DNA of 64,000 bases from Parachlamydiales bacterium (GCA_050302075.1 JBNLAH010000002.1:218427-282426), one strand, 5' to 3'; counted from the stretch's first letter, positions 29,041-39,011 are shown. Numbers and translations: made by a program. Notes: generated by a model not told the origin, from the sequence alone.

Positions 29041-29928
29041 TTATACTTTTTTTGAAAATAGTTTTTCGACTAAAATTTCAAGGTCGTTTGTGTTACGATC
29101 TATCGATCTTAAAAGATTAATGGACTTTTGCTTAAGATCTTTGATGTGCAGTCTTGCTTCGTCAATTCCAACACAGCTAACATAAGTAGCTTTTTTGTTA
29201 ATCATATCTGATTTAGCAGGCTTTCCCAAAGAATCTGTGGATGAGGTAACATCTAATATGTCATCTTGAATTTGAAAAGCTAGGCCAACAAATTCTCCAA
29301 TTTTTTGAAGTATATTTCTCTCATGTTGGGTAGCATCTCCTAAAATTGCACCAAATTCTAAGCTTGCTAAGATCATTGAAGCGGTTTTTTTTCGGTGCAT
29401 TTTTTCAATCAGTGTTTGAGATAAGTTTTTTCCTTCTGATGTTAGATCAATAATTTGTCCTTTGATTAACTCATTACCCCCAGATCTATGCGCTAGTGTT
29501 TTAACTAATTGTAGTTTTTTTTCAGGTGATATGCCTTCTAAATTTGCCAAGAGCTCAAAAGGGTATGTTAATAGAAAATCGCCAGCTAAAATTGCAATAG
29601 ACTCACTATATGCAATGTGCAAAGAAGGCTTCCCTCTACGATAGTCATCATCGTCCATACTTGGAAGGTCATCATGAATTAAGGAGTAGGTATGGATCAT
29701 TTCAATGCAACAAGCAGGGTCAATACTTATATTATCTTTAACGTTAAAAGCATTGGCCGTAGCAATGACAAACATTGGCCTTAATCTTTTTGCTTTTGAG
29801 AGCAATGAATATTTAACAGCTTCACATAAAATATCCGGCTCGGAAAAAACATCGTCAATCAGATCTTCAAGCCTTAGGTTTATTTTCTCGGCCAGATCGT
29901 CAAAGGTGGTGTTATGAGTTTTTTGCAT
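29041..29928 (-). CDS. ispA: Polyprenyl (farnesyl/geranylgeranyl) diphosphate synthase
   Basis: KRLRP, EMIHTYSLIHDDLPSMDDDDYRRGKP, GQIID, KTA, FQIQDDILD; start refined to MQKTH. Confidence 0.93.
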   Translation of the reverse strand: MQKTHNTTFDDLAEKINLRLEDLIDDVFSEPDILCEAVKYSLLSKAKRLRPMFVIATANAFNVKDNISIDPACCIEMIHTYSLIHDDLPSMDDDDYRRGKPSLHIAYSESIAILAGDFLLTYPFELLANLEGISPEKKLQLVKTLAHRSGGNELIKGQIIDLTSEGKNLSQTLIEKMHRKKTASMILASLEFGAILGDATQHERNILQKIGEFVGLAFQIQDDILDVTSSTDSLGKPAKSDMINKKATYVSCVGIDEARLHIKDLKQKSINLLRSIDRNTNDLEILVEKLFSKKV

Positions 29929-31249
29929 CAGGAATTCCAATTCCAATGTATTTAAATCCTTCTTGTTGCATTTTTGAAGGGGTGTATTGATTGCGTCCAT
30001 CAAAAAGAACATATCTTTTCATTTTGTCTTTTATAGGCTTGAAGTCAACTAAGCGAAATTGTTTCCATTCAGTTAAAAGTGCGATGGCATCAGCGCCGTC
30101 AGCTGCATCGAATTCACTTTTACACCAAGTTAAATTTTTCATCTTTTGCAAGATTTTTTTTGCATTATCCATGGCAACCGGGTCGTATAATCGAAGTTTT
30201 GCACCTTTATCAATCAATTGCTTAATTAATGTAATTGAAGGAGCTTCTCGCATATCATCTGTATCAGGTTTAAAGGAAAGCCCCCAGATAGCAATTGTCT
30301 TATCTTTGACCCCACCTAATTCAGAAAAATAATTCTGGATATTTTCAGCCAGTACTTTTTTCTGCCTTATATTCACTTCATCTACAGCATCAAGTAAAAT
30401 AGGCTCGCATTCATATTGTTTTGCAATTGACCTTAAAGCTCTAATATCTTTTGGAAAACAAGATCCACCATAACCAATCCCAGCATATAAAAAACTATAT
30501 CCAATTCGTGAGTCTGATCCTATTCCTTTTCGAACTTCGTTAATATTGGCCCCAACTTTTTTGCAAATTTGTGCAATTTCATTCATAAAAGAAATTCGAG
30601 TTGCAAGCATTGCATTAGCTGCATACTTAGTCATTTCAGCAGAGTTACGATCCATAATTAGAATTCGGTCATGATTCAAAGTAAATGGTTCATACAATTT
30701 TTTTAATAAATCAGCGGCACTTTTATCATTTGCCCCTATTATAATTCGATCGGGTTTCATGCAATCTTGAATTGCAGAACCTTCTTTCAGAAACTCTGGA
30801 TTTGAAACTACTGAAAAAGAAATTTTTTCTGTTAAATTATCAATAATTACTTTTTCTATTAAATCACCAGTTTTAACAGGAGATGTAGATTTATTTACTA
30901 CAACTATTGAATTTTTTAAATTTTGAGCAATTAGTTTAGAGCACTCTACAACATAGCTAAGATCACATGAGCCATCGTCTGCAGAAGGGGTTGGGACTGC
31001 AATAAAGCATACTTCAGCTTTTTTTAAAGCCTCATCATAGGAAGTTGTGAAAAAAAGTCTTTTTGACTCTTTGTTCCTTATTACCAGTTCCTTCAAACCA
31101 GGTTCATATATTGGTATTATTCCCTGATTTAATTCTTCAATTTTCTTTTTATTAACATCTACGCAAGTAACAGTATGCCCCATTTCAGCAAAACAAGTTC
31201 CTGTTACTAGCCCTACATAACCTGTCCCAAAAATTGCGATATGCATCAT
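29912..31249 (-). CDS. ugd: UDP-glucose 6-dehydrogenase
   Basis: GTGYVGL, PIYEPGL, SNPEFLKEG, KYAANAMLA, GYGGSCFPKD, GLSFKPDTDDMRE, DGRN. Confidence 0.95.
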   Translation of the reverse strand: MMHIAIFGTGYVGLVTGTCFAEMGHTVTCVDVNKKKIEELNQGIIPIYEPGLKELVIRNKESKRLFFTTSYDEALKKAEVCFIAVPTPSADDGSCDLSYVVECSKLIAQNLKNSIVVVNKSTSPVKTGDLIEKVIIDNLTEKISFSVVSNPEFLKEGSAIQDCMKPDRIIIGANDKSAADLLKKLYEPFTLNHDRILIMDRNSAEMTKYAANAMLATRISFMNEIAQICKKVGANINEVRKGIGSDSRIGYSFLYAGIGYGGSCFPKDIRALRSIAKQYECEPILLDAVDEVNIRQKKVLAENIQNYFSELGGVKDKTIAIWGLSFKPDTDDMREAPSITLIKQLIDKGAKLRLYDPVAMDNAKKILQKMKNLTWCKSEFDAADGADAIALLTEWKQFRLVDFKPIKDKMKRYVLFDGRNQYTPSKMQQEGFKYIGIGIPDAKNS

Positions 31250-31309
31250 AGACTCCCAACTAAAGCAATATTAGTAACAGAATATTGAATAGATCTCCAG
31301 CAAATATGT

Positions 31310-31978
31310 TTATGAAAGAGGAAATAAAGAACCATCTTTAAGTTCTAAAGACTTATCACATAATGATGCTAGGTTTAGATCATGAGTTGCGATAATCAAA
31401 CTTTTTTGTTCATTTTTTGTAATTGAAAGTAAAAGCTTATGAATTGTTTTAGAATTTTTATGGTCTAAGTTTCCGGACGGCTCATCAGCTAAAATAATGT
31501 CAGGGTCATTACAGAAAGCTCTAGCGATAGATACTCTTTGCTTTTCACCTCCAGATAAAAATTTTGTCTGAAAATTCTTTCTATGGCTTAACCCTACTAG
31601 TTCAATGTACTTTTCAGCTCTTTTAGAGGTTGTTTTAAGATTTTTTCTACCAATTCGTGCTGGGAAAGTGACATTATCTAAGACTGTAAAGTCATCTAAT
31701 AAATTATAATCTTGGAAAATAAATCCTATTTTTTCATTTCTTATCTTGGCAGCATTGTTAAAATTAATGTTAACAGAGGATAGCTTTATAAAGCCCTCGT
31801 CGGGTTTTTCCAAAAGCCCAAAAATATTCAGCAGAGTTGTTTTACCTTCACCTGATGAGCCCATAATAGCTATGGACTCAGAGGGTTTAATTGAAAATGA
31901 AATTTTTTTAAGCACATCTACTCTTTGAGGATGTAAATAGTGCTTTGAGATATTTTCAGCTTCTAAATTGAATGTCAC
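31310..31978 (-). CDS. lolD: Lipoprotein-releasing ABC transporter ATPase LolD
   Basis: GSSGEGKTT, IGFIFQDYNLL, LSGGEKQRVSIARA, LADEPSGNLD, ATHD. Confidence 0.88.
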   Translation of the reverse strand: MTFNLEAENISKHYLHPQRVDVLKKISFSIKPSESIAIMGSSGEGKTTLLNIFGLLEKPDEGFIKLSSVNINFNNAAKIRNEKIGFIFQDYNLLDDFTVLDNVTFPARIGRKNLKTTSKRAEKYIELVGLSHRKNFQTKFLSGGEKQRVSIARAFCNDPDIILADEPSGNLDHKNSKTIHKLLLSITKNEQKSLIIATHDLNLASLCDKSLELKDGSLFPLS

Positions 31979-32789
31979 GTTCTTTTAACCTTTTTTTGAT
32001 TACAGCTTCAAGCTCATTTTGTGAGTGGCAGTAGTAACAATTTATCCCATACATGCAGTTATTGTTGAGAAAATTAACGCATATTGCTGCTATTTTCTCT
32101 ACTCTTAACTCTCTTAATTCATGTTCTCCATGGGCAAAAGAACAATTTCTTGCTTTTCTACAAGTTTTTCCCCTAGCATGATATTTACAAAGCCTAGTTT
32201 TGTAATTATGACAAGTTGCAGCAGCTTCTAAGTCTTGATTTGGTTGCACTTCTGGTTTAATTAATCCTTTACAGACTGCAAATTGAAAAAGCTGCTGGTA
32301 TCTTCTAGTAAAGTAGCTGTATGAAGCAATAGCTTTGCTATACTTTTCATGATGAAATGAGAAGAGTACTAGATTGCGTTCTTTTTTCGCTTTTTTTATC
32401 TCTCTTAGATGATAATTTGACAACATATAGTTTTCATTAGACTTTATATATGCTGCGTGTATAGCTCTTAAATACGTTATTTGTAGATTGTTTAGGCTAA
32501 ATACTGGTGGCTGCCTGCGCTCTTGAGGTGAGTATCTAATAGGGCCTTGCGCCTCTAAAAATCTTCTTGTTGTAGGTGCTAGGAGATCTATCGCACGTTC
32601 AGCCGCTGTTTTTTTCTCACCTTCGCTATCAATTGTTTTTTCTCTTGGAGTACTGCTTTGAATAGCTTTTTCCATACTAGGCAATATATGACTGATTAAA
32701 TCAGCTGATCTGGGAGTTACACTAAGTGTGTCCTCTCTTGGATTACTGGGGGCTATTATTGGATTAGTAGCAATTGTTGGAAATGACAT
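31956..32789 (-). CDS. Tandem CCCH zinc-finger protein (TTP/ZFP36-like) with N-terminal extension
   Basis: NYKTRL-C-x8-C-x5-C-x3-H-GEHEL, then C-x7-C-x5-C-x3-H-SQNEL. Confidence 0.85.
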   Translation of the reverse strand: MSFPTIATNPIIAPSNPREDTLSVTPRSADLISHILPSMEKAIQSSTPREKTIDSEGEKKTAAERAIDLLAPTTRRFLEAQGPIRYSPQERRQPPVFSLNNLQITYLRAIHAAYIKSNENYMLSNYHLREIKKAKKERNLVLFSFHHEKYSKAIASYSYFTRRYQQLFQFAVCKGLIKPEVQPNQDLEAAATCHNYKTRLCKYHARGKTCRKARNCSFAHGEHELRELRVEKIAAICVNFLNNNCMYGINCYYCHSQNELEAVIKKRLKERDIQFRS

Positions 32790-32846
32790 AATCTTAATCC
32801 TCTCTTTAAATTTAAAAAATACTTTCTTAACAAAAGTTAGCCGCCA

Positions 32847-32874
32847 ATCTTATGAAAAGCATCTTTTTTTTCAA
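32847..32874 (-). promoter_or_regulatory. Putative sigma66/70 promoter TTGAAA-N16-TAAGAT
   Basis: Read on the minus strand upstream of ATG 32789. Confidence 0.4.
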
Positions 32875-33129
32875 ATTATAAAATAACCATCTACTTTCAG
32901 AAATTTTTTATAGAAATTTTCCTCATAAGGTTTTTAAGTAAAATAAAATATATCTGATATAGAAATGCAATATGGTCGATGATTCTTTAAGATAAAGTTG
33001 TTTGTGTAGGAAACTGTGACTGGTAATATTTATAACTAAGGATAGCTGTGAAATTTTTTATTACGCCTTAAGTTAATTTTAATTTTTCATGGGGCAAGAA
33101 GCCCCAGATATACAAATTTTAGTTCTAAC

Positions 33130-34299
33130 TTAAGCTGATATACCATTTTTATCTAATAGGATTTTAAAGTAGCTAAGCTCATTTTTAGTATGAACAAAAG
33201 GGCAAAAGGTTAGACGAAGGCAACTTTTGCCAAATCTGCATCTCCTGTTAATTTTATTATCAAACTTTTTAATTTCTCTTTTACTATGAGCAAAATGACA
33301 ATTCCTTCTATTGCAGGCGCCGTATTTAATGAATGCTTTGCAAAATGCTGTGGCTAATTTTTTAGTTTTCTCTCTAGTTTTATTGCTAGCTAAGGAAGCA
33401 GCACCACAATCTCTTTTAGTATGCGTTGTTGGAGCTCTAAAAGAATGGCGGTAAGCTTTCGCTTTGGTAGTCTTATCTTTTGAAGCTTGAGAACTTGATT
33501 GACTTGCTTCAGCATGGGCTGCTCCTCCTGTATTTTTAGAAGTATTAGCTGGAGAAGCTGCGTGGACAATACTGCAGTTTCTTTTATTTCGCGGCCTCAT
33601 TATGAGGATACTTTCTGGGGCTGAGAACTCTGCTTGAGCTGCAGGACATGTTCCACTAGAATTACTGGTTGCTGCATATTGAGATGATAAGATAGTTAAA
33701 TCTTGTGAAATTTGCATAGTTTTCATACAAGCTTGCGAAGCAAATGAAAATTGAAAAGCTGCAAGTGCTACATTGTGGTATAAATATTTTGACCTAATCT
33801 CAAAAGAACGCAAGCTTTCTGATTCTGTAACTTCTTTGTGTGGATTAATTTTATCTAAAAGCTCTCTGAGGTGAGCTGAGTGATAGTTAATAAAACCTAG
33901 TAATTTTTCTTCATCCAAATTATCTGCTTGAAAAGGTTCCAATTCAACAGCTGTGTAATTTTCTGGCACTTCTTCAGCTCTATTATTTATATGTAATAAA
34001 AAGTTGTGTAATTGAATGTAAAAACTAGATCTAGCCCAAGCCTCTGTATATATTAATTGATTTAACCAATTATTATCTGTTTGTATTGCCTCAAAGTACC
34101 TAAATTGTTTTTTCTGAGATGTCTCAGCAAATTTGAGATATGAACTTAGAGCGTCGCTTATTACGTTTCTTAATTTGTTATCGATAGTTGACTGGGATTG
34201 AGCTGCCGGCGATTCCTCAGCTTCAGGATTAGTATATAGATTTAAAATACTACTATTTAAAGGTTGAAGATCTGTAAAGTTATCTGACTGAATACTCAT
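33130..34299 (-). CDS. Divergent tandem CCCH zinc-finger protein with long N-terminal domain and S/A/K-rich linker
   Basis: ATAF-C-x8-C-x4-C-x3-H-S..EI and C-x5-C-x5-C-x3-H-T.NEL near the C-terminus. Confidence 0.8.
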   Translation of the reverse strand: MSIQSDNFTDLQPLNSSILNLYTNPEAEESPAAQSQSTIDNKLRNVISDALSSYLKFAETSQKKQFRYFEAIQTDNNWLNQLIYTEAWARSSFYIQLHNFLLHINNRAEEVPENYTAVELEPFQADNLDEEKLLGFINYHSAHLRELLDKINPHKEVTESESLRSFEIRSKYLYHNVALAAFQFSFASQACMKTMQISQDLTILSSQYAATSNSSGTCPAAQAEFSAPESILIMRPRNKRNCSIVHAASPANTSKNTGGAAHAEASQSSSQASKDKTTKAKAYRHSFRAPTTHTKRDCGAASLASNKTREKTKKLATAFCKAFIKYGACNRRNCHFAHSKREIKKFDNKINRRCRFGKSCLRLTFCPFVHTKNELSYFKILLDKNGISA

Positions 34300-34422
34300 A
34301 AGCTTTTAGTTCCTTTTTTATTGAATTAAGTGGCAATTGCCTTTATATATGTTTATTAGTTGTTTATATCTTTTCTCAGCTTTTTCTAAGTCATAGAACA
34401 TAGCAGCAAGTCTTGATAGCCC

Positions 34423-34872
34423 TTACTTGCTTGCATTAAATCTTCGATCATAAACTGTTTGAAAAATTTGAGTTTCTCGAGGGAGCTCTACTAGTTCTTC
34501 AGGCCCGTGAGCAAAATCACAGTCATCTCCAAACTGGCAAACACCCCCTTGTAAATAATTAACACAAAGTTGGGTTTTATAATTAGGACGTTGTCTTAGT
34601 TCTTCAGATCCATGAGCAAATTTACAACTTTCCCCACGGTAACATCTGCTTTTTATAAAATGACGGCACAACTGGGTTTTGTAATTATCTCGTTTCTTTT
34701 TTAAGCTAAGCTGTTCTTTTTTTGCGGGTTGTTTTAAAGCACTTTGGCAAACAGCCGTTGTCACAATCCTTTCCTGGAAAATCATCTCGACAGTTATATC
34801 TTTTTTAGTTGTACTTGGTTCTTGATATGAAAGACTTTCTTTTGATGTAGAAGAAGATACGCTTGAAGCCAT
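34423..34872 (-). CDS. Tandem CCCH zinc-finger protein, closely TTP/ZFP36/Cth-like
   Basis: NYKTQL-C-x7-C-x5-C-x3-H-GSEELR and NYKTQL-C-x8-C-x5-C-x3-H-GPEEL; S/T-rich N-terminus; AGAGG RBS. Confidence 0.92.
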   Translation of the reverse strand: MASSVSSSTSKESLSYQEPSTTKKDITVEMIFQERIVTTAVCQSALKQPAKKEQLSLKKKRDNYKTQLCRHFIKSRCYRGESCKFAHGSEELRQRPNYKTQLCVNYLQGGVCQFGDDCDFAHGPEELVELPRETQIFQTVYDRRFNASK

Positions 34873-34901
34873 CTTTTTACCTCTTTAAATAATGAGGGAT
34901 C

Positions 34902-34929
34902 ATCTTAAAGTTTTTAATAAAAAAATCAA
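34902..34929 (-). promoter_or_regulatory. Putative sigma66/70 promoter TTGATT-N16-TAAGAT
   Basis: Read on the minus strand upstream of ATG 34872. Confidence 0.4.
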
Positions 34930-34958
34930 CTACTAAAAATTTGAGTGGATTTTTTTAT

Positions 34959-36968
34959 TTACGATCTAAGTATTTTAGCTGGGTTAAGATTTGCGGCTTT
35001 TAGAGCTGGTATAATTCCAGCAAGCAAAGAGATTATTGGTGTTACAATTAAAATAAATAGAAGAGCTTCTGAGCTCAAGTTATTTGGAAGAGAACTACCA
35101 AAAAAGGCAGCATTAAAGGCCTGGTGACCTTGAAGCCTACTTAAGAATGCAGCAATTGAATCAATGTGTTTTAAAGTGACTACTGCAAGGAATGTTCCAA
35201 TGGCGCTGCTCAAAAAACCTGTGATAAAGCCACATGCGCCAAAAATAAAAGCTATGCTTTTTTTAGAAGCTCCAAGTGACATAAGTATAGCAATTTCTTT
35301 TTTCTTATCGTTTACTAACAATATTAGCATTGAAATAACATTTGAACATGCCACCATTAAAATTATAATAGCAACTAAAGAAAATAAGAGCTTATCACTT
35401 TGAAACTGTTGTAATAAATCTTTTGAAAAATCGAAATCTTCATATGTCTCAACTTTCCAATATTTATCTACTTTCTTATCAATAAAGCCTGTTTCAATTA
35501 AGGATTTTATTTTTTTAGCATCCTTCAATGGCGTATTCCAAATGAAAAGCCCATTGTTGGTTATTTCACTAGTTGAAACAAATGATGAAGAGTTAATAAT
35601 TCTTACTAATTCAATTGGAGCTATTAAAAACCTACTTCCTAACGGAAATACACCAGGATCATAAAAACCTGCTATATAAAAAGGAGTTCTCATTTCCTTA
35701 GATGATGTAGAACTTGCAGATGAAAATCCAAAGTAACCATTGTCTCCAATTAGCGCATGATTTTTTTTGAAAGATTTAGGGAGTAGAGTACCATAGCTAT
35801 TGTTTATCTTTGGTAAAATATAGCCCTTGTTTTTAACAAAATAAATCCAAGGGGGAGGAGTTTTGGGTTCGTTGTCAAAATTTATTTTTGCCTTAGCTTT
35901 GACTAATTTGCATGCTCTTAAAGAGATTTTTTCATTAATTGGGTTATTTTGAATTATTCCTTTAACAAAAAGATCTTCGTTTTCAATTGACTCAACATCA
36001 AAATAAAGTGGCTCTTTAGTGTATAAAATAGTTGATTGGACGTCGAAATTTTTTTCTAATCTGCCATTTACGATGTACAAAATTTTATCTTTCAGTCTGA
36101 TGATTTGAGTGTCAGATTGACCATTGTTTTTTAGCAGAATTTGCTTCTTACCTCGAATTTCAGATAATTTTTCCACATAAAAAAGAACTTTCTCAGGTAA
36201 TAGATAATAGGGGAGAGATGGATCTTTTAATTGAACTTTTTTAATTTGAATATTTTCTAATACCCTTTGATTAAATGAGGTATTATCAGGTGAAAAAGCT
36301 ATTCTATCTTTTAATGAAGCCTCATTTTTATTGATGAGAAGATTTTCAATATCTTCTATTGAAGGCTTTACTAAAAGGTTAGATAAATTTGGGTTTTTTT
36401 CAGAAAGTGACAATATATAAGTCATTTGTGATACAAAAGAAGTTTGTGGTAACAAGTTATCTGAACTTCTGTTTAATGAAAGCCGCATGAAAGCTCCACT
36501 TAATTCGTAATCTTGAAATTCAAGCGCGGGAAAGTCTTTTTTCAAGTTATTAAGATCGCTATAAGCAATTTTAACTAGATCTTTCACTTTCCCATTATCA
36601 TCTACGTCCGGTTTATTCCAATGGTAAGGAATTTCAATATCTGAATCTGATAAGTAGGGATTTGCTAGGTTGGAATTTTTTTTTTCTCCTATGGTTTTAG
36701 TCTCATAAAAAGACTCAGATGAAAGATTATCGATTAGATAATAATATGATTTGTAATATTCATCTGTTGGGGTAATCCTAATAGGAGCATTTAAAGAAGT
36801 AAGTTTATTAAGCCAATTTTGTTCTAAACCGGCTGTCACAGATAAGAATATTAAGACGAGCCAGACTACCAAAGAAATCACAACAAATGCAATTAGTGAT
36901 ATAACTGATGTAGAGATGGCTCTTTTTTTAGGAATTAAGTACTTGAGAGCGACAAAAAGCTCATACAT
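34959..36968 (-). CDS. Lipoprotein-releasing ABC transporter permease LolC/E (FtsX-like), with large periplasmic insertion
   Basis: ELFVALKYLIPKK, VVWLVLIFLSV..G, ACSNVISML...DKKKEIAIL.SLGA, PALKAA.LNP..ILR. Confidence 0.88.
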   Translation of the reverse strand: MYELFVALKYLIPKKRAISTSVISLIAFVVISLVVWLVLIFLSVTAGLEQNWLNKLTSLNAPIRITPTDEYYKSYYYLIDNLSSESFYETKTIGEKKNSNLANPYLSDSDIEIPYHWNKPDVDDNGKVKDLVKIAYSDLNNLKKDFPALEFQDYELSGAFMRLSLNRSSDNLLPQTSFVSQMTYILSLSEKNPNLSNLLVKPSIEDIENLLINKNEASLKDRIAFSPDNTSFNQRVLENIQIKKVQLKDPSLPYYLLPEKVLFYVEKLSEIRGKKQILLKNNGQSDTQIIRLKDKILYIVNGRLEKNFDVQSTILYTKEPLYFDVESIENEDLFVKGIIQNNPINEKISLRACKLVKAKAKINFDNEPKTPPPWIYFVKNKGYILPKINNSYGTLLPKSFKKNHALIGDNGYFGFSSASSTSSKEMRTPFYIAGFYDPGVFPLGSRFLIAPIELVRIINSSSFVSTSEITNNGLFIWNTPLKDAKKIKSLIETGFIDKKVDKYWKVETYEDFDFSKDLLQQFQSDKLLFSLVAIIILMVACSNVISMLILLVNDKKKEIAILMSLGASKKSIAFIFGACGFITGFLSSAIGTFLAVVTLKHIDSIAAFLSRLQGHQAFNAAFFGSSLPNNLSSEALLFILIVTPIISLLAGIIPALKAANLNPAKILRS

Positions 36969-36972
36969 TACT

Positions 36973-37134
36973 TTACTTAGCTTCTCTAAAAATCACGCGC
37001 TTGCGAAGTTTTTTATCGAATTTTTTAAGTTCAAGTCTCTCAGTTACGTTCCTTTTATTTTTTTCTGTCCAGTAGACTTCGTTACTTTCAGTACTTTTTA
37101 ATTTAATTTTCTCGCGTGGTCCTTTTTTAGCCAT
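36973..37134 (-). CDS. rpmG: 50S ribosomal protein L33 (Zn-free type), absent from the ORF track
   Basis: Manual translation [53 protein letters not shown]. Confidence 0.95.
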
Positions 37135-37188
37135 TTGTCAACCTCTGTTTAATAGATAGATGATTTTACAAGATTGAAAATATAAGTC

Positions 37189-38208
37189 TCAAGTGTAAAA
37201 AGCAGCTCTTGGTAATGGAGATAGGTCAATTTCTGATCCTTTTTTTGATAAATTAAATTTTTGATAGCCAAGTCCAGCTATCATAGCTGCATTGTCTAAG
37301 GAAAGGTCTTTAGATGGCCAAAAAAAGGGAGTTGAGAGTTTTCTCTCTTCTATCATTTTCCTAAGCGTCATACTTTGAGTGACCCCTCCGCCGAAATAAA
37401 CAGCTTTTGCATCAATAAGAGGGATTGCTTTTTCAACTTTTTTTATGACATCTGAAAAGGCAGCTTTTTGAAATGCAGCAGCGATGTGTCTTTTTTCATC
37501 ATCAGAAACTCTAAGTGGGCTATTTTTATTAGCTCCTTGACCTTTAAGTGTATATAAAACTTTTGTTTTAAGGCCGCTGAATGAAAAATCAAAAGACCTT
37601 CCTTTTATTTCAGCTGGTTTGAAATTAAATATTTGAGGATCTCCCAATTTGGCTAATTTTTCAATCTCAGGTCCTCCGGGATAAGGAAGATCAAGCATAG
37701 AGGCCACCTTATCAAAAGCTTCACCTATGGCATCGTCGATGGTCTGTCCAATCAATTCGTAGTCGCCAACTGCATTTATTTTAACTAATATGGTATGACC
37801 ACCAGATAAAACTACGCCAAGTGATGGGAATAATTTTTTCTGACCCATCATAGCGGCATAAAGGTGAGCCTCGACATGATTTACTCCAATAAAAGGGATA
37901 TTTTTAGCAAAAGCAAGACTTTTAGCGCAGTTCACTCCTACGAGCAGTGCTCCCATAAGTCCAGGGGCATATGCAACCGCTATTAAATCTATATTATCCA
38001 AGCTAACATTTGCTGTTTTAAGAGCCTTATCTACAGCTGAAGTTATAACTTCAATATGTTTCCTGCTGGCAAGCTCTGGAAAAACTCCGCCATATTGTTT
38101 ATGGAGATCAATTTGAGAAAAGATAATATTTGACAAGATTAAATCGTTGTCTGATACAACAGCTGCAGCTGTCTCATCACAAGTAGTTTCTATTCCAAGT
38201 ACAATCAT
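37189..38208 (-). CDS. tsaD: tRNA N6-threonylcarbamoyladenosine synthase TsaD
   Basis: LGIETTCDET, YGGVFPELASRKH, NHVEAH, SGGHT, DDAIGEAFDK, FSFSGLKT, DNAAMIA. Confidence 0.96.
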   Translation of the reverse strand: MIVLGIETTCDETAAAVVSDNDLILSNIIFSQIDLHKQYGGVFPELASRKHIEVITSAVDKALKTANVSLDNIDLIAVAYAPGLMGALLVGVNCAKSLAFAKNIPFIGVNHVEAHLYAAMMGQKKLFPSLGVVLSGGHTILVKINAVGDYELIGQTIDDAIGEAFDKVASMLDLPYPGGPEIEKLAKLGDPQIFNFKPAEIKGRSFDFSFSGLKTKVLYTLKGQGANKNSPLRVSDDEKRHIAAAFQKAAFSDVIKKVEKAIPLIDAKAVYFGGGVTQSMTLRKMIEERKLSTPFFWPSKDLSLDNAAMIAGLGYQKFNLSKKGSEIDLSPLPRAAFYT

Positions 38209-38237
38209 AATGCAAATAGAATAGCAAAAAAGCAATA

Positions 38238-39011
38238 TTAAGTGAGATTTTTTAAGTTAGCAGCAGCTGCTTTATCAATAATCCATAAAGCTTTATTTTG
38301 ACTCGATCCTATCATCTGAGATGGATAGCTTGTTGAACCAGGCTCTGGAAATAAAGCCTTTTTTAAAATGTTTTTTTTCTTGTCTCCCAGGACATATAAA
38401 ACAATATTTTTTGATTGATTAATAGCTTTGAAGGTAAGCGTCATTCTCCAAGTATTTTTTTGTGGTACATAATTTGCAACTACAAGTTTTTCAGCTTCTT
38501 TTAGGGCTTCAGTATTTGGAAAAAGTGATGCAGTATGACCATCATCTCCAACTCCCAACATGACCAAATCAAATGGCTTTGAATTAAGCTTCTTACTAAT
38601 TAGTTCTTCATACTCTTTAGCACTTTTTTCAATATCGTGTTCAGCTTTCATTCGAAAAACATTTCCTTGTTTAATCGGCATGTTTTTTATCCCTGAGTCC
38701 ATTGCCATTTTATAATTACTTTCAGAATTTTCTGGAGGGACAGCTCTTTCATCACTCCAAAAAAATAAAATTTTATCCCACTCTATTTCATTCTTGAACT
38801 GATCTGAGCAGAGCAATTGAAAAATAGATTTTGGTGTTGATCCACCGGATAGTGCCACACTGAAATAGTTTTTCTCTGAAATATTTTTCTTACAAAGGTC
38901 TATAAAGTGATTTATGCAGTAAACTATAGTCTCTTCATAATCGCCCGGAAAAATTAGGTTTCTCCTATCATCCAGGGACTGGACTCTTCTGATGTTTGTA
39001 TCAATTATCAT
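38238..39011 (-). CDS. pgl: 6-phosphogluconolactonase
   Basis: ALSGGSTP, FWSDERAVPP, LGVGDDGHTASLFP, RMTLT. Confidence 0.95.
   Translation of the reverse strand: MIIDTNIRRVQSLDDRRNLIFPGDYEETIVYCINHFIDLCKKNISEKNYFSVALSGGSTPKSIFQLLCSDQFKNEIEWDKILFFWSDERAVPPENSESNYKMAMDSGIKNMPIKQGNVFRMKAEHDIEKSAKEYEELISKKLNSKPFDLVMLGVGDDGHTASLFPNTEALKEAEKLVVANYVPQKNTWRMTLTFKAINQSKNIVLYVLGDKKKNILKKALFPEPGSTSYPSQMIGSSQNKALWIIDKAAAANLKNLT

Follow-up and report, generated by a model that had tools for sequence, protein, structure and literature searches.

How does a chlamydial genome come to carry, in the midst of a housekeeping operon, three genes for zinc fingers of a eukaryotic type, and what might their products do? 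The question is raised by a stretch of 64,000 nucleotides from a Parachlamydiales bacterium (GCA_050302075.1, JBNLAH010000002.1:218427-282426), hereafter the window. In it, three co-oriented open reading frames (ORFs) on the minus strand, ORF3 (149 residues), ORF2 (389 residues) and ORF1 (277 residues), lie between lolE and lolD and encode pairs of Cys-Cys-Cys-His (CCCH) fingers resembling those of tristetraprolin. The best explanation of the whole, to which a probability of about 0.5 may be given, is that three paralogues with eukaryote-type fingers have been inserted here, and that their products would be exported by the type III system and bind host RNA. Intracellular bacteria are known to use borrowed eukaryotic domains to manipulate ubiquitination, chromatin and trafficking; if true, the borrowed tristetraprolin-type module would add direct, sequence-specific capture of host mRNA-decay elements.

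The three genes and their finger regions, numbered from the first letter of the window, are these:

34423..34872, minus strand: ORF3, 149 residues, with a Ser/Thr-rich disordered part (residues 1-60), tandem CCCH fingers (63-126) and a C-terminal helix (132-143)

34495..34686, minus strand: ORF3 finger domain, residues 63-126, zf-CCCH 6.7e-15 in two stretches; Cx7Cx5Cx3H, a linker of 15 residues (His to Cys), Cx8Cx5Cx3H; NYKTQLC lead-in on both fingers, then FAHG..EEL

33130..34299, minus strand: ORF2, 389 residues, with an orphan N-terminal part, an internal Ser/Thr/Ala-rich low-complexity stretch and two degenerate C-terminal CCCH fingers

33190..33342, minus strand: ORF2 finger pair, residues 320-370, recognised by the CCCH pattern and by hhalign (95.2%), under all Pfam cut-offs; Cx8Cx4Cx3H, a 15-residue linker, Cx5Cx5Cx3H, with no YKT lead-in

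31956..32789, minus strand: ORF1, 277 residues, with a Pro/Ser/Thr-rich N-terminus, an orphan middle region and C-terminal tandem CCCH fingers

32025..32207, minus strand: ORF1 finger pair, residues 195-255, zf-CCCH 6.8e-5, BLASTP to ORF3 9e-15 over 91 residues; Cx8Cx5Cx3H, a 16-residue linker, Cx7Cx5Cx3H; NYKTRLC lead-in on finger 1 only

The reading frames, their common orientation and the two C-terminal fingers of each are present where an earlier note, made from the sequence of this DNA, had placed them. All 24 zinc ligands of the three proteins are intact (24/24). Of the six fingers, three retain the YKTxLC lead-in, both in ORF3 and the first in ORF1; the same note had likewise read YKT(Q/R)LC in two of the three proteins. 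Against the Pfam family zf-CCCH (PF00642, cut-off 20.5 bits) ORF3 scores 55.0 bits in two stretches and ORF1 23.1 bits in one, barely above the threshold. ORF2 has no match to PF00642, its best Pfam score being 15.2 bits to zf-CCCH_12, for which the cut-off is 27; a profile of ORF3, ORF1 and a further chlamydial protein (G265, below) nonetheless aligns with its fingers at an hhalign probability of 95.2%. By sequence comparison, then, the ORF2 fingers are degenerate but homologous to those of ORF3 and ORF1. No NCBIfam family matches any of the three proteins.

Among solved structures, residues 62-126 of ORF3 match tristetraprolin (1m9o, 9.1e-14) and TIS11d (1rgo, 4.6e-13) over the whole tandem domain, and the fingers of CPSF30, MBNL1, Unkempt and Roquin far more weakly. 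Against tristetraprolin and TIS11d, the HMMER alignment opens gaps of one residue in finger 1 and of three residues in the linker. It sets the eight zinc ligands in register together with five of the six aromatic positions (the Phe of both CxFAH motifs, the residue after the first Cys of both fingers, and the Cx5C loop of finger 2); the sixth, in the finger 1 Cx5C loop, lies one residue out of register. An AlphaFold model of ORF3, built on a 34-row alignment, has a predicted local distance difference test score (pLDDT) of 76-96 for residues 61-130 and below 62 for the N-terminal 60 residues. In a Foldseek search with this model, the first match was TIS11d with AU-rich RNA (1rgo, E 2.5e-5, 46% identity, target TM-score 0.50) and the second POS-1 (6nzl, E 5.5e-4); the single-sequence model of ORF2 is uninformative (mean pLDDT 34.8). 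Overall, the likeness of ORF3 to tristetraprolin is genuine at the level of the sequence and of the modelled fold. The description of the domain as a eukaryotic, tristetraprolin-type tandem module therefore stands on the Pfam zf-CCCH matches, the sequence matches to 1m9o and 1rgo and the top fold match to 1rgo.

An exhaustive HMMER search with ORF3 returned 12,125 proteins at E <= 0.001, the best-scoring stretches of which fall nearly all within about residues 58-135 of ORF3. The 150 best matches were re-scored by single domain and the 20 best of these looked up. Nine of the 20 had an organism name, namely seven dinoflagellate proteins (Yihiella, Durusdinium, two from Polarella, Ansanella, two from Biecheleria), one from a ciliate (Pseudomicrothorax) and one plant record (Thalictrum), and the other 11 were unnamed transcriptome or metagenome proteins. 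The ten Atlas rows listed, nine of them Eukaryota and one lacking a taxon record (scores 0.85-0.89), are leads only. Dinoflagellate CCCH families are very large, and transcriptome sets sample these organisms heavily, so that the taxon signal too is a lead and no assignment of a donor. The spacing of the fingers was compared among 122 matches with a coverage of 58 or more of the 75 query residues. Cx7Cx5Cx3H-x16-Cx8Cx5Cx3H is the layout found most often (19/122, and 12/20 among the best), and the canonical 8-5-18-8-5 arrangement occurs in 3/122. Judged on this comparison, ORF3 has a near protist layout, one linker residue off, and not a decayed tristetraprolin pattern.

A tree of 77 rows and 72 columns was built from seven chlamydial domains and the 70 best of the 122 matches; it leaves out the other 52 and all matches of shorter coverage, and its 'euk_' row labels were assigned by the author. 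It is largely a polytomy, with 34 of 74 branches open and no starred clade that includes any window protein, and hence the donor and the order of events are not inferable from it. Three viral contigs, two of them in giant-virus bins, encode related CCCH proteins (best-segment identity 47-54%) with shorter linkers, some having two fingers 9-11 residues apart, or with a single finger. Such viruses might be another reservoir of the domain, within shared protist hosts. With a nearest-relative set that is eukaryotic, the finger domain is by sequence probably of eukaryotic, tristetraprolin-like and protist-type origin. The suggestion in the earlier note that it was captured from the host is plausible, though neither the polytomy nor the giant-virus fingers point to a single donor. 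The available part of one source describes chlamydiae able to infect dinoflagellates (PMC11317633), and the protist-type spacing may hint at the host of this uncultured chlamydia.

The insertion itself is defined by the genes and spacers around it:

36973..37134, minus strand: 53-residue ORF like ribosomal protein L33 (rpmG-like), just upstream of lolE, its identity judged by eye from the sequence

34959..36968, minus strand: LolC/E-type lipoprotein-release permease, 669 residues, the left anchor of the insertion; Pfam FtsX 1.2e-13, NCBIfam lolCE TIGR02212 1e-45

34916..34959, no strand: AT-rich inverted repeat with 16-nt arms and a 12-nt loop, in the lolE-ORF3 spacer and straddling the lolE stop codon

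32790..33129, no strand: AT-rich spacer upstream of ORF1, 340 bp, GC 0.256, with a promoter-like minus-strand site TTGAAA-16-TAAGAT from 32874 to 32847

31310..31978, minus strand: LolD ATPase, 222 residues, GTG start, the right anchor of the insertion; ABC_tran 1.4e-32, LolD TIGR02211 1.5e-66 from model position 2

Along the minus strand the order is thus the L33-like ORF, the LolC/E-type permease, ORF3, ORF2, ORF1 and LolD. Pfam and NCBIfam identify the flanks as a LolC/E-type permease and LolD, in agreement with the placement of the three genes between lolE and lolD in the earlier note; both NCBIfam scores (TIGR02212 and TIGR02211) lie under the curated equivalog cut-offs. The spacers measure 86 bp (lolE-ORF3), 123 bp (ORF3-ORF2) and 340 bp (ORF2-ORF1), and the stop codon of ORF1 stands 23 nt within lolD, the start of lolD overlapping the end of ORF1.

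LolD was detected in 26 of 30 relatives (E <= 1e-40), with 41-57% identity to the LolD of this genome, and the relatives compared come from 16 genera within the same family and from 10 further families of the order. By tblastn, the match to the C-terminal part of LolE either reaches into the lolD start or stops no more than about 50 nt short of it in 25 of these 26 loci; the 26th starts at a contig edge, and hence the adjacency is found in 25/25 informative loci. The gene directly upstream of lolD in these 25 relatives is 35-58% identical to LolE here. Among the relatives compared, it is in this genome only that 2,980 bp separate lolE and lolD. As lolE and lolD are adjacent across those 16 genera and 10 other families, their adjacency is ancestral and the 2,980 bp a lineage-specific gain, which is the outcome of the synteny comparison that the earlier note had proposed. 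Beyond chance-level short matches, no repeats or mobile-element traces flank the insertion, and the finger motif is the sole family tied to its genes. As a separate observation, the position upstream of lolD, with a gene end running into the lolD start, belongs to lolE in the relatives and to ORF1 here; lolE and lolD share about 1-7 nt in the relatives, ORF1 and lolD share 23 nt, and LolE and ORF1 both end in ...RS.

By several measures the three genes behave as ordinary residents of their genome. The GC content at third codon positions (GC3) is 0.249, 0.226 and 0.228 for the three genes, compared with 0.254 +/- 0.037 for the 52 other ORFs of the window, and z values of a measure like the codon adaptation index, computed on those 52 ORFs, are -0.45, +0.85 and -0.45. 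None of the genes contains an intron, and each has a Shine-Dalgarno-like site 7-13 nt ahead of its ATG, such as AAAGAGG 7 nt before that of ORF3 and GAGAGGA 8 nt before that of ORF1. In the Logan assembly of one sequencing run (X1), a contig of 117,001 nt spans 31200-35800 with 0 differences and a flat depth of 24.8; as this run is probably the source of the data, it is no independent sample, though the assembler is a different one. Two sediment-metagenome runs of a different study yield three 151-nt contigs that agree with parts of ORF1 at every position; the other matches in runs X2-X4 are uninformative, mostly some 35-50 nt long, with several mismatches each, and fall in lolD and in short stretches elsewhere. 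No RNA run is listed among the sequencing runs. The three genes are native to the chlamydial genome, long-resident and adapted to the bacterium. The chance of a chimera that the earlier note had flagged is met by the second assembler, which reproduces both junctions, and by a codon usage equal to that of the neighbours.

The three proteins are related to one another, and elsewhere in this genome PF00642 finds nothing beyond the three window genes. BLASTP aligns ORF3 with ORF1 at 9e-15 over 91 residues, including about 20 upstream of the fingers, ORF1 with ORF2 at 6e-6 and ORF3 with ORF2 at 3e-5. ORF1 and ORF2 pair in the finger-domain tree at 93/79, and an approximately unbiased (AU) test does not reject a single clade for the three window proteins (p 0.215). 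Of the triplication claimed by the earlier note, the kinship of the genes stands (9e-15, hhalign 95.2%, AU p 0.215), and a local triplication is compatible with the data, but not proven. Outside the finger domain the proteins stand alone. A word-indexed search of 5.8 billion proteins returned no full-length homologue for any of the three, ORF3 and ORF2 finding only themselves and ORF1 itself and three finger-only matches. Across the family's 102 other genomes nothing matches ORF2, and ORF1 has finger-only matches in three and one dubious match besides (E 0.0015, internal stop).

What these proteins do depends first on where they go. The draft genome, 96% complete, totals 1.84 Mb in 89 contigs at 32-34% GC, and the locus lies on a contig of about 282 kb. 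It encodes four full-length TLC nucleotide transporters and the type III apparatus component SctV/FHIPEP (2.3e-229), secretin-family matches being below the cut-off; on the basis of the transporters and SctV among others, this is the genome of an uncultured environmental chlamydia. Ser/Thr-rich N-termini are linked to type III signals. The Ser+Thr fraction over residues 2-25 is 0.50 in ORF3, the highest value among 1,482 crude gene calls; ORF1 comes 77th and ORF2 150th. The earlier note had given all three a low-complexity N-terminus rich in Ser, Thr, Pro and Gln. This is true of ORF3 and in part of ORF1, which is Ser/Thr/Pro-rich, but in ORF2 the stretch is internal (about residues 210-310) and the region ahead of it is predicted, at very low confidence, to be helical. 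The longest hydrophobic run in ORF1, ORF2 and ORF3 is at most 6 residues. From these sequence features, the chance that the proteins are exported to the host and bind host RNA there would be about even.

How such proteins might act can be sketched from TIS11d, each finger of which binds one UAUU of UUAUUUAUU through backbone hydrogen bonds and two aromatic side chains, as set out in the available part of the report (PMC1635273). By analogy, the window proteins may be inferred to bind single-stranded U/A-rich RNA. Apparently lacking a Sec signal and a membrane segment, they would leave by the chlamydial type III system, with the N-termini directing export. Once in the host cytosol, the fingers would each fold around zinc and clamp a short single-stranded U/A-rich element. 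Recruitment of a deadenylase, as in the tristetraprolin family, is probably beyond them, since no similarity to that family outside the finger domain was found for ORF3 among the 12,125 relatives, a comparison of flanks in which the CCR4-NOT-recruiting motif itself, which we take to lie there, was not scanned for. ORF3 consists of the finger pair and short tails only, and for this reason occupancy of sites is, speculatively, likelier than the triggering of decay. The proteins would then occupy the sites of host tandem-zinc-finger regulators and so alter the stability or translation of those mRNAs. With 149 residues, a secretion-signal-like tail and a finger pair, the ORF3 protein is a very small and easily expressed object on which to test these steps. 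A more specific version is rather unlikely: that the proteins are finger-only mimics of tristetraprolin regulators, the first of their kind in bacteria, taken from a dinoflagellate- or ciliate-like alveolate host, triplicated in place and injected by the type III system. They would sit on U/A-rich elements of host mRNAs with no deadenylase recruited and so block or re-route host mRNA decay in the bacterium's favour, a solution that would have arisen or spread several times in environmental chlamydiae (15/400).

In the full-text literature, which leaves most subscription journals outside its coverage, no publication on a bacterial tristetraprolin-like protein or on such a class of effectors was found, and in this respect the result agrees with the earlier note, which was aware of no such class characterised in bacteria. 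One paper that mentions both CCCH and Chlamydiae (PMC4029402) was set aside, the fingers in its available part belonging to algal pentatricopeptide-repeat proteins.

CCCH fingers do occur elsewhere in the phylum. At E <= 0.001, PF00642 was found in 0/14 control genomes, in 15/400 scored genomes of the phylum, this one included (one further genome could not be scored), in 7/68 within the family and in 2/131 genomes of the one other phylum sampled, so that the rarity of the module in bacteria, asserted earlier, is borne out. A pattern scan on a three-sequence alignment found two loci in the genome collection; it is limited by its pattern and no census. The chlamydial proteins G265 (191 residues), G238 (159 residues) and G306/G401 (204 and 209 residues) are built like ORF3, with a Pro/Ser-rich N-terminus of about 60-110 residues and C-terminal tandem or triple CCCH fingers that match those of ORF1 at 8e-10 to 1e-7. 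Their N-termini, in contrast, are unrelated to those of the window proteins, and their genomic sites differ, none being at lolE-lolD. For the seven chlamydial tandem domains taken together, the AU test does not reject a single clade (p 0.39); the free tree puts them in at least two places, with five changes needed, of which starred branches force at least two. G306 (L059:1612-2226) and G401 (L058:6027-6656) are a syntenic three-finger gene in two species of one genus (g27), with all ligands kept and, as neighbours, a gene with a product starting MFDLL and a 270-residue ORF. At a dS of 0.40 their dN/dS is 0.20, and such CCCH genes are thus kept by selection in this family.

Several side observations belong to these relatives. 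The G265 protein (L060:1516-2091, 191 residues) ends in a '...SPLPIFKEL...' tail, which presumably resembles the 'LPIF' core of the CNOT1-binding tail of tristetraprolin and may do so by chance. In other Chlamydiota (family f3, genus g110), frames of more than 1,000 residues at L006 (G322:C49), L011 and L020 (G147:C1) encode a superfamily-1 helicase (AAA_11 5e-29, AAA_12 4e-59) and end in one tristetraprolin-type finger with NYKTELC or NYKTQLC, a eukaryote-like fusion of helicase and CCCH finger. Within the same family, genus g11 has two genes (G272, L013:841-1917; G088, L017:1273-2208) with one CCCH finger (ICRHH..G.C..G..C.F.H) and a homologous C-terminal part of about 200 residues (GGIKLGGVN...FSF.TG...) that matches no Pfam family at E <= 0.001; by sequence these look like a second, uncharacterised chlamydial CCCH family. 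A five-finger CCCH ORF on a very short contig of 2,749 bp (G217:C22, L062), where numerous ORFs overlap one another on the two strands, may stem from eukaryotic DNA contaminating that bin and be no chlamydial gene.

Several facts weigh against a role as secreted binders of host RNA. Ser/Thr richness is only a loose correlate of secretion, and the ORF2 fingers, under every Pfam cut-off, may be decaying. The spacing of the fingers is off the tristetraprolin pattern, with Cx7 or Cx4/Cx5 loops and linkers of 15-16 residues, not 18. CCCH proteins are at most about twice as frequent in this phylum (15/400) as in the other one sampled (2/131), and, as no full-length homologue was found, conservation does not speak for these three genes themselves. 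The genes sit within a housekeeping operon, where ORF1 overlaps lolD, and a genome of 32-34% GC yields many U/A-rich bacterial RNAs as possible targets. Finally, it is backbone geometry that sets RNA specificity in this fold, which makes prediction from the sequence difficult, and small sequence changes can shift the specificity unpredictably, according to the part of the TIS11d report available (PMC1635273); AU-rich-element binding by the window proteins is for this reason a guess.

Some of these facts would suit an intrabacterial role, in which the domesticated domain would bind single-stranded U/A-rich RNA made by the chlamydia itself, perhaps in connection with the expression of lolD and envelope genes, and the proteins would be no effectors. 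The site inside the lolE-lolD operon and the 23-nt overlap of ORF1 with the lolD start suggest co-expression with envelope biogenesis and fit such a role equally well; the fully ameliorated codon usage and the AT-rich genome speak for it too. It is nevertheless unlikely. None of the 102 other genomes of the family has the genes, which therefore serve no conserved bacterial process; this reading also gives no account of the long disordered N-termini or of the extreme Ser/Thr bias of ORF3 (rank 1/1,482), and in the literature searched no bacterial role of a tristetraprolin-type domain was found described.

Secreted effectors might also use their fingers on another target, be it another class of RNA (as with fingers of the Nab2, MBNL, ZAP or Roquin type), DNA or a host protein. 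We would hold this for distinctly unlikely. It draws on the non-canonical spacing, the off-by-one aromatic in finger 1 of ORF3, the strongly altered loops of ORF2, the presence of CPSF30, MBNL1, Unkempt and Roquin among the weaker structural matches, and a specificity that, from the available part of PMC1635273, is unreadable from sequence. The top sequence and fold matches are nonetheless consistently the AU-rich-element binders tristetraprolin and TIS11d, and the YKTxLC lead-in persists on 3/6 fingers.

It is very improbable that the genes are neutral passengers, brought in long ago from a eukaryote or a giant virus, now decaying and transcribed only through their location in the operon. They are singletons without orthologues, the fingers of ORF2 are degenerate and related fingers do occur on giant-virus contigs. 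Yet all three frames are open with 24/24 ligands intact, Shine-Dalgarno-like sites are retained, and the gene from genus g27 evolves at a dN/dS of 0.20; as amelioration is slow, unselected genes in a reduced genome of 1.8 Mb should by then be broken or deleted. An assembly chimera or eukaryotic contamination joined into the chlamydial contig, which a draft of 89 contigs and a eukaryotic domain might bring to mind, is next to impossible for intronless genes with bacterial ribosome-binding sites, an ORF1 stop within lolD, and codon usage and GC3 equal to those of the neighbours. The site is some 30 kb inside a contig of about 282 kb, as counted from its closer end, and a second assembler gives both junctions with 0 differences and flat depth.

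The intergenic regions add little to the picture. Promoter-like sites are not above shuffles in the region (19 found, 23.3 expected), and neither are terminator-like sites (6 found, 3.9 expected); the inverted repeat at 34916..34959 was not called in the terminator scan, and Rfam gave zero matches in window positions 30000-38500. Farther along the window, a polyprenyl-synthase-like ORF (29041-30012) and a UDP-glucose-dehydrogenase-like ORF (29912-31249), both named by eye, overlap by 101 nt (29912-30012), and the latter probably has a later start codon than the one listed.

Among known systems, the closest is tristetraprolin/ZFP36/TIS11d (1M9O, 1RGO), which has two CCCH fingers with YKTxLC lead-ins and CxFAHG..EL tails, as ORF3 does, and whose fold is shared by the ORF3 model (1rgo being its top Foldseek match). 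The lead-in (R/K)YKTELC, which we take to define the tristetraprolin/ZFP36/TIS11 family, has its counterparts in NYKTQLC on both fingers of ORF3 and NYKTRLC on finger 1 of ORF1, and none in ORF2. Unlike tristetraprolin, the window proteins are bacterial, intronless, 149-389 residues long and equipped with unrelated N-termini. They differ, too, from the canonical spacing as given in the available part of PMC1635273: Cx8Cx5Cx3H on both fingers becomes Cx7 and Cx8 in ORF3, Cx8 and Cx7 in ORF1, and Cx8Cx4 and Cx5Cx5 in ORF2, and the 18-residue linker is 15 residues long in ORF3 and ORF2 and 16 in ORF1. POS-1 and MEX-5 of C. elegans (6NZL, 6PMG) share the tandem CCCH fold, with a sequence match of 3.9e-10 and lower similarity than tristetraprolin or TIS11d.

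Chlamydiae and Legionella are known for eukaryotic-like effectors with ankyrin, F-box, SET and TPR domains. In these, likewise, a eukaryotic domain sits on a bacterial protein of patchy distribution, and the obligate intracellular lifestyle with a type III system is common to them and to this chlamydia; a class with tristetraprolin-type fingers was not found in the literature retrieved for Chlamydiae or Legionella. In its available part, one study counts ankyrin, WD40 and TPR proteins in a chlamydia, its screen for eukaryotic-like proteins being limited to these three (PMC11317633). In layout, the nearest counterparts of ORF3 are small tandem CCCH proteins of alveolates (Polarella, Durusdinium, Yihiella, Ansanella and Biecheleria, and the ciliate Pseudomicrothorax). 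These give the top per-domain scores (57-66 bits), have a linker of 16 residues where ORF3 has 15, and are at most 56% identical to it over the kept tree columns; with ORF3 they share Cx7Cx5Cx3H, a short linker with a '(R/K)PN' motif, and Cx8Cx5Cx3H.

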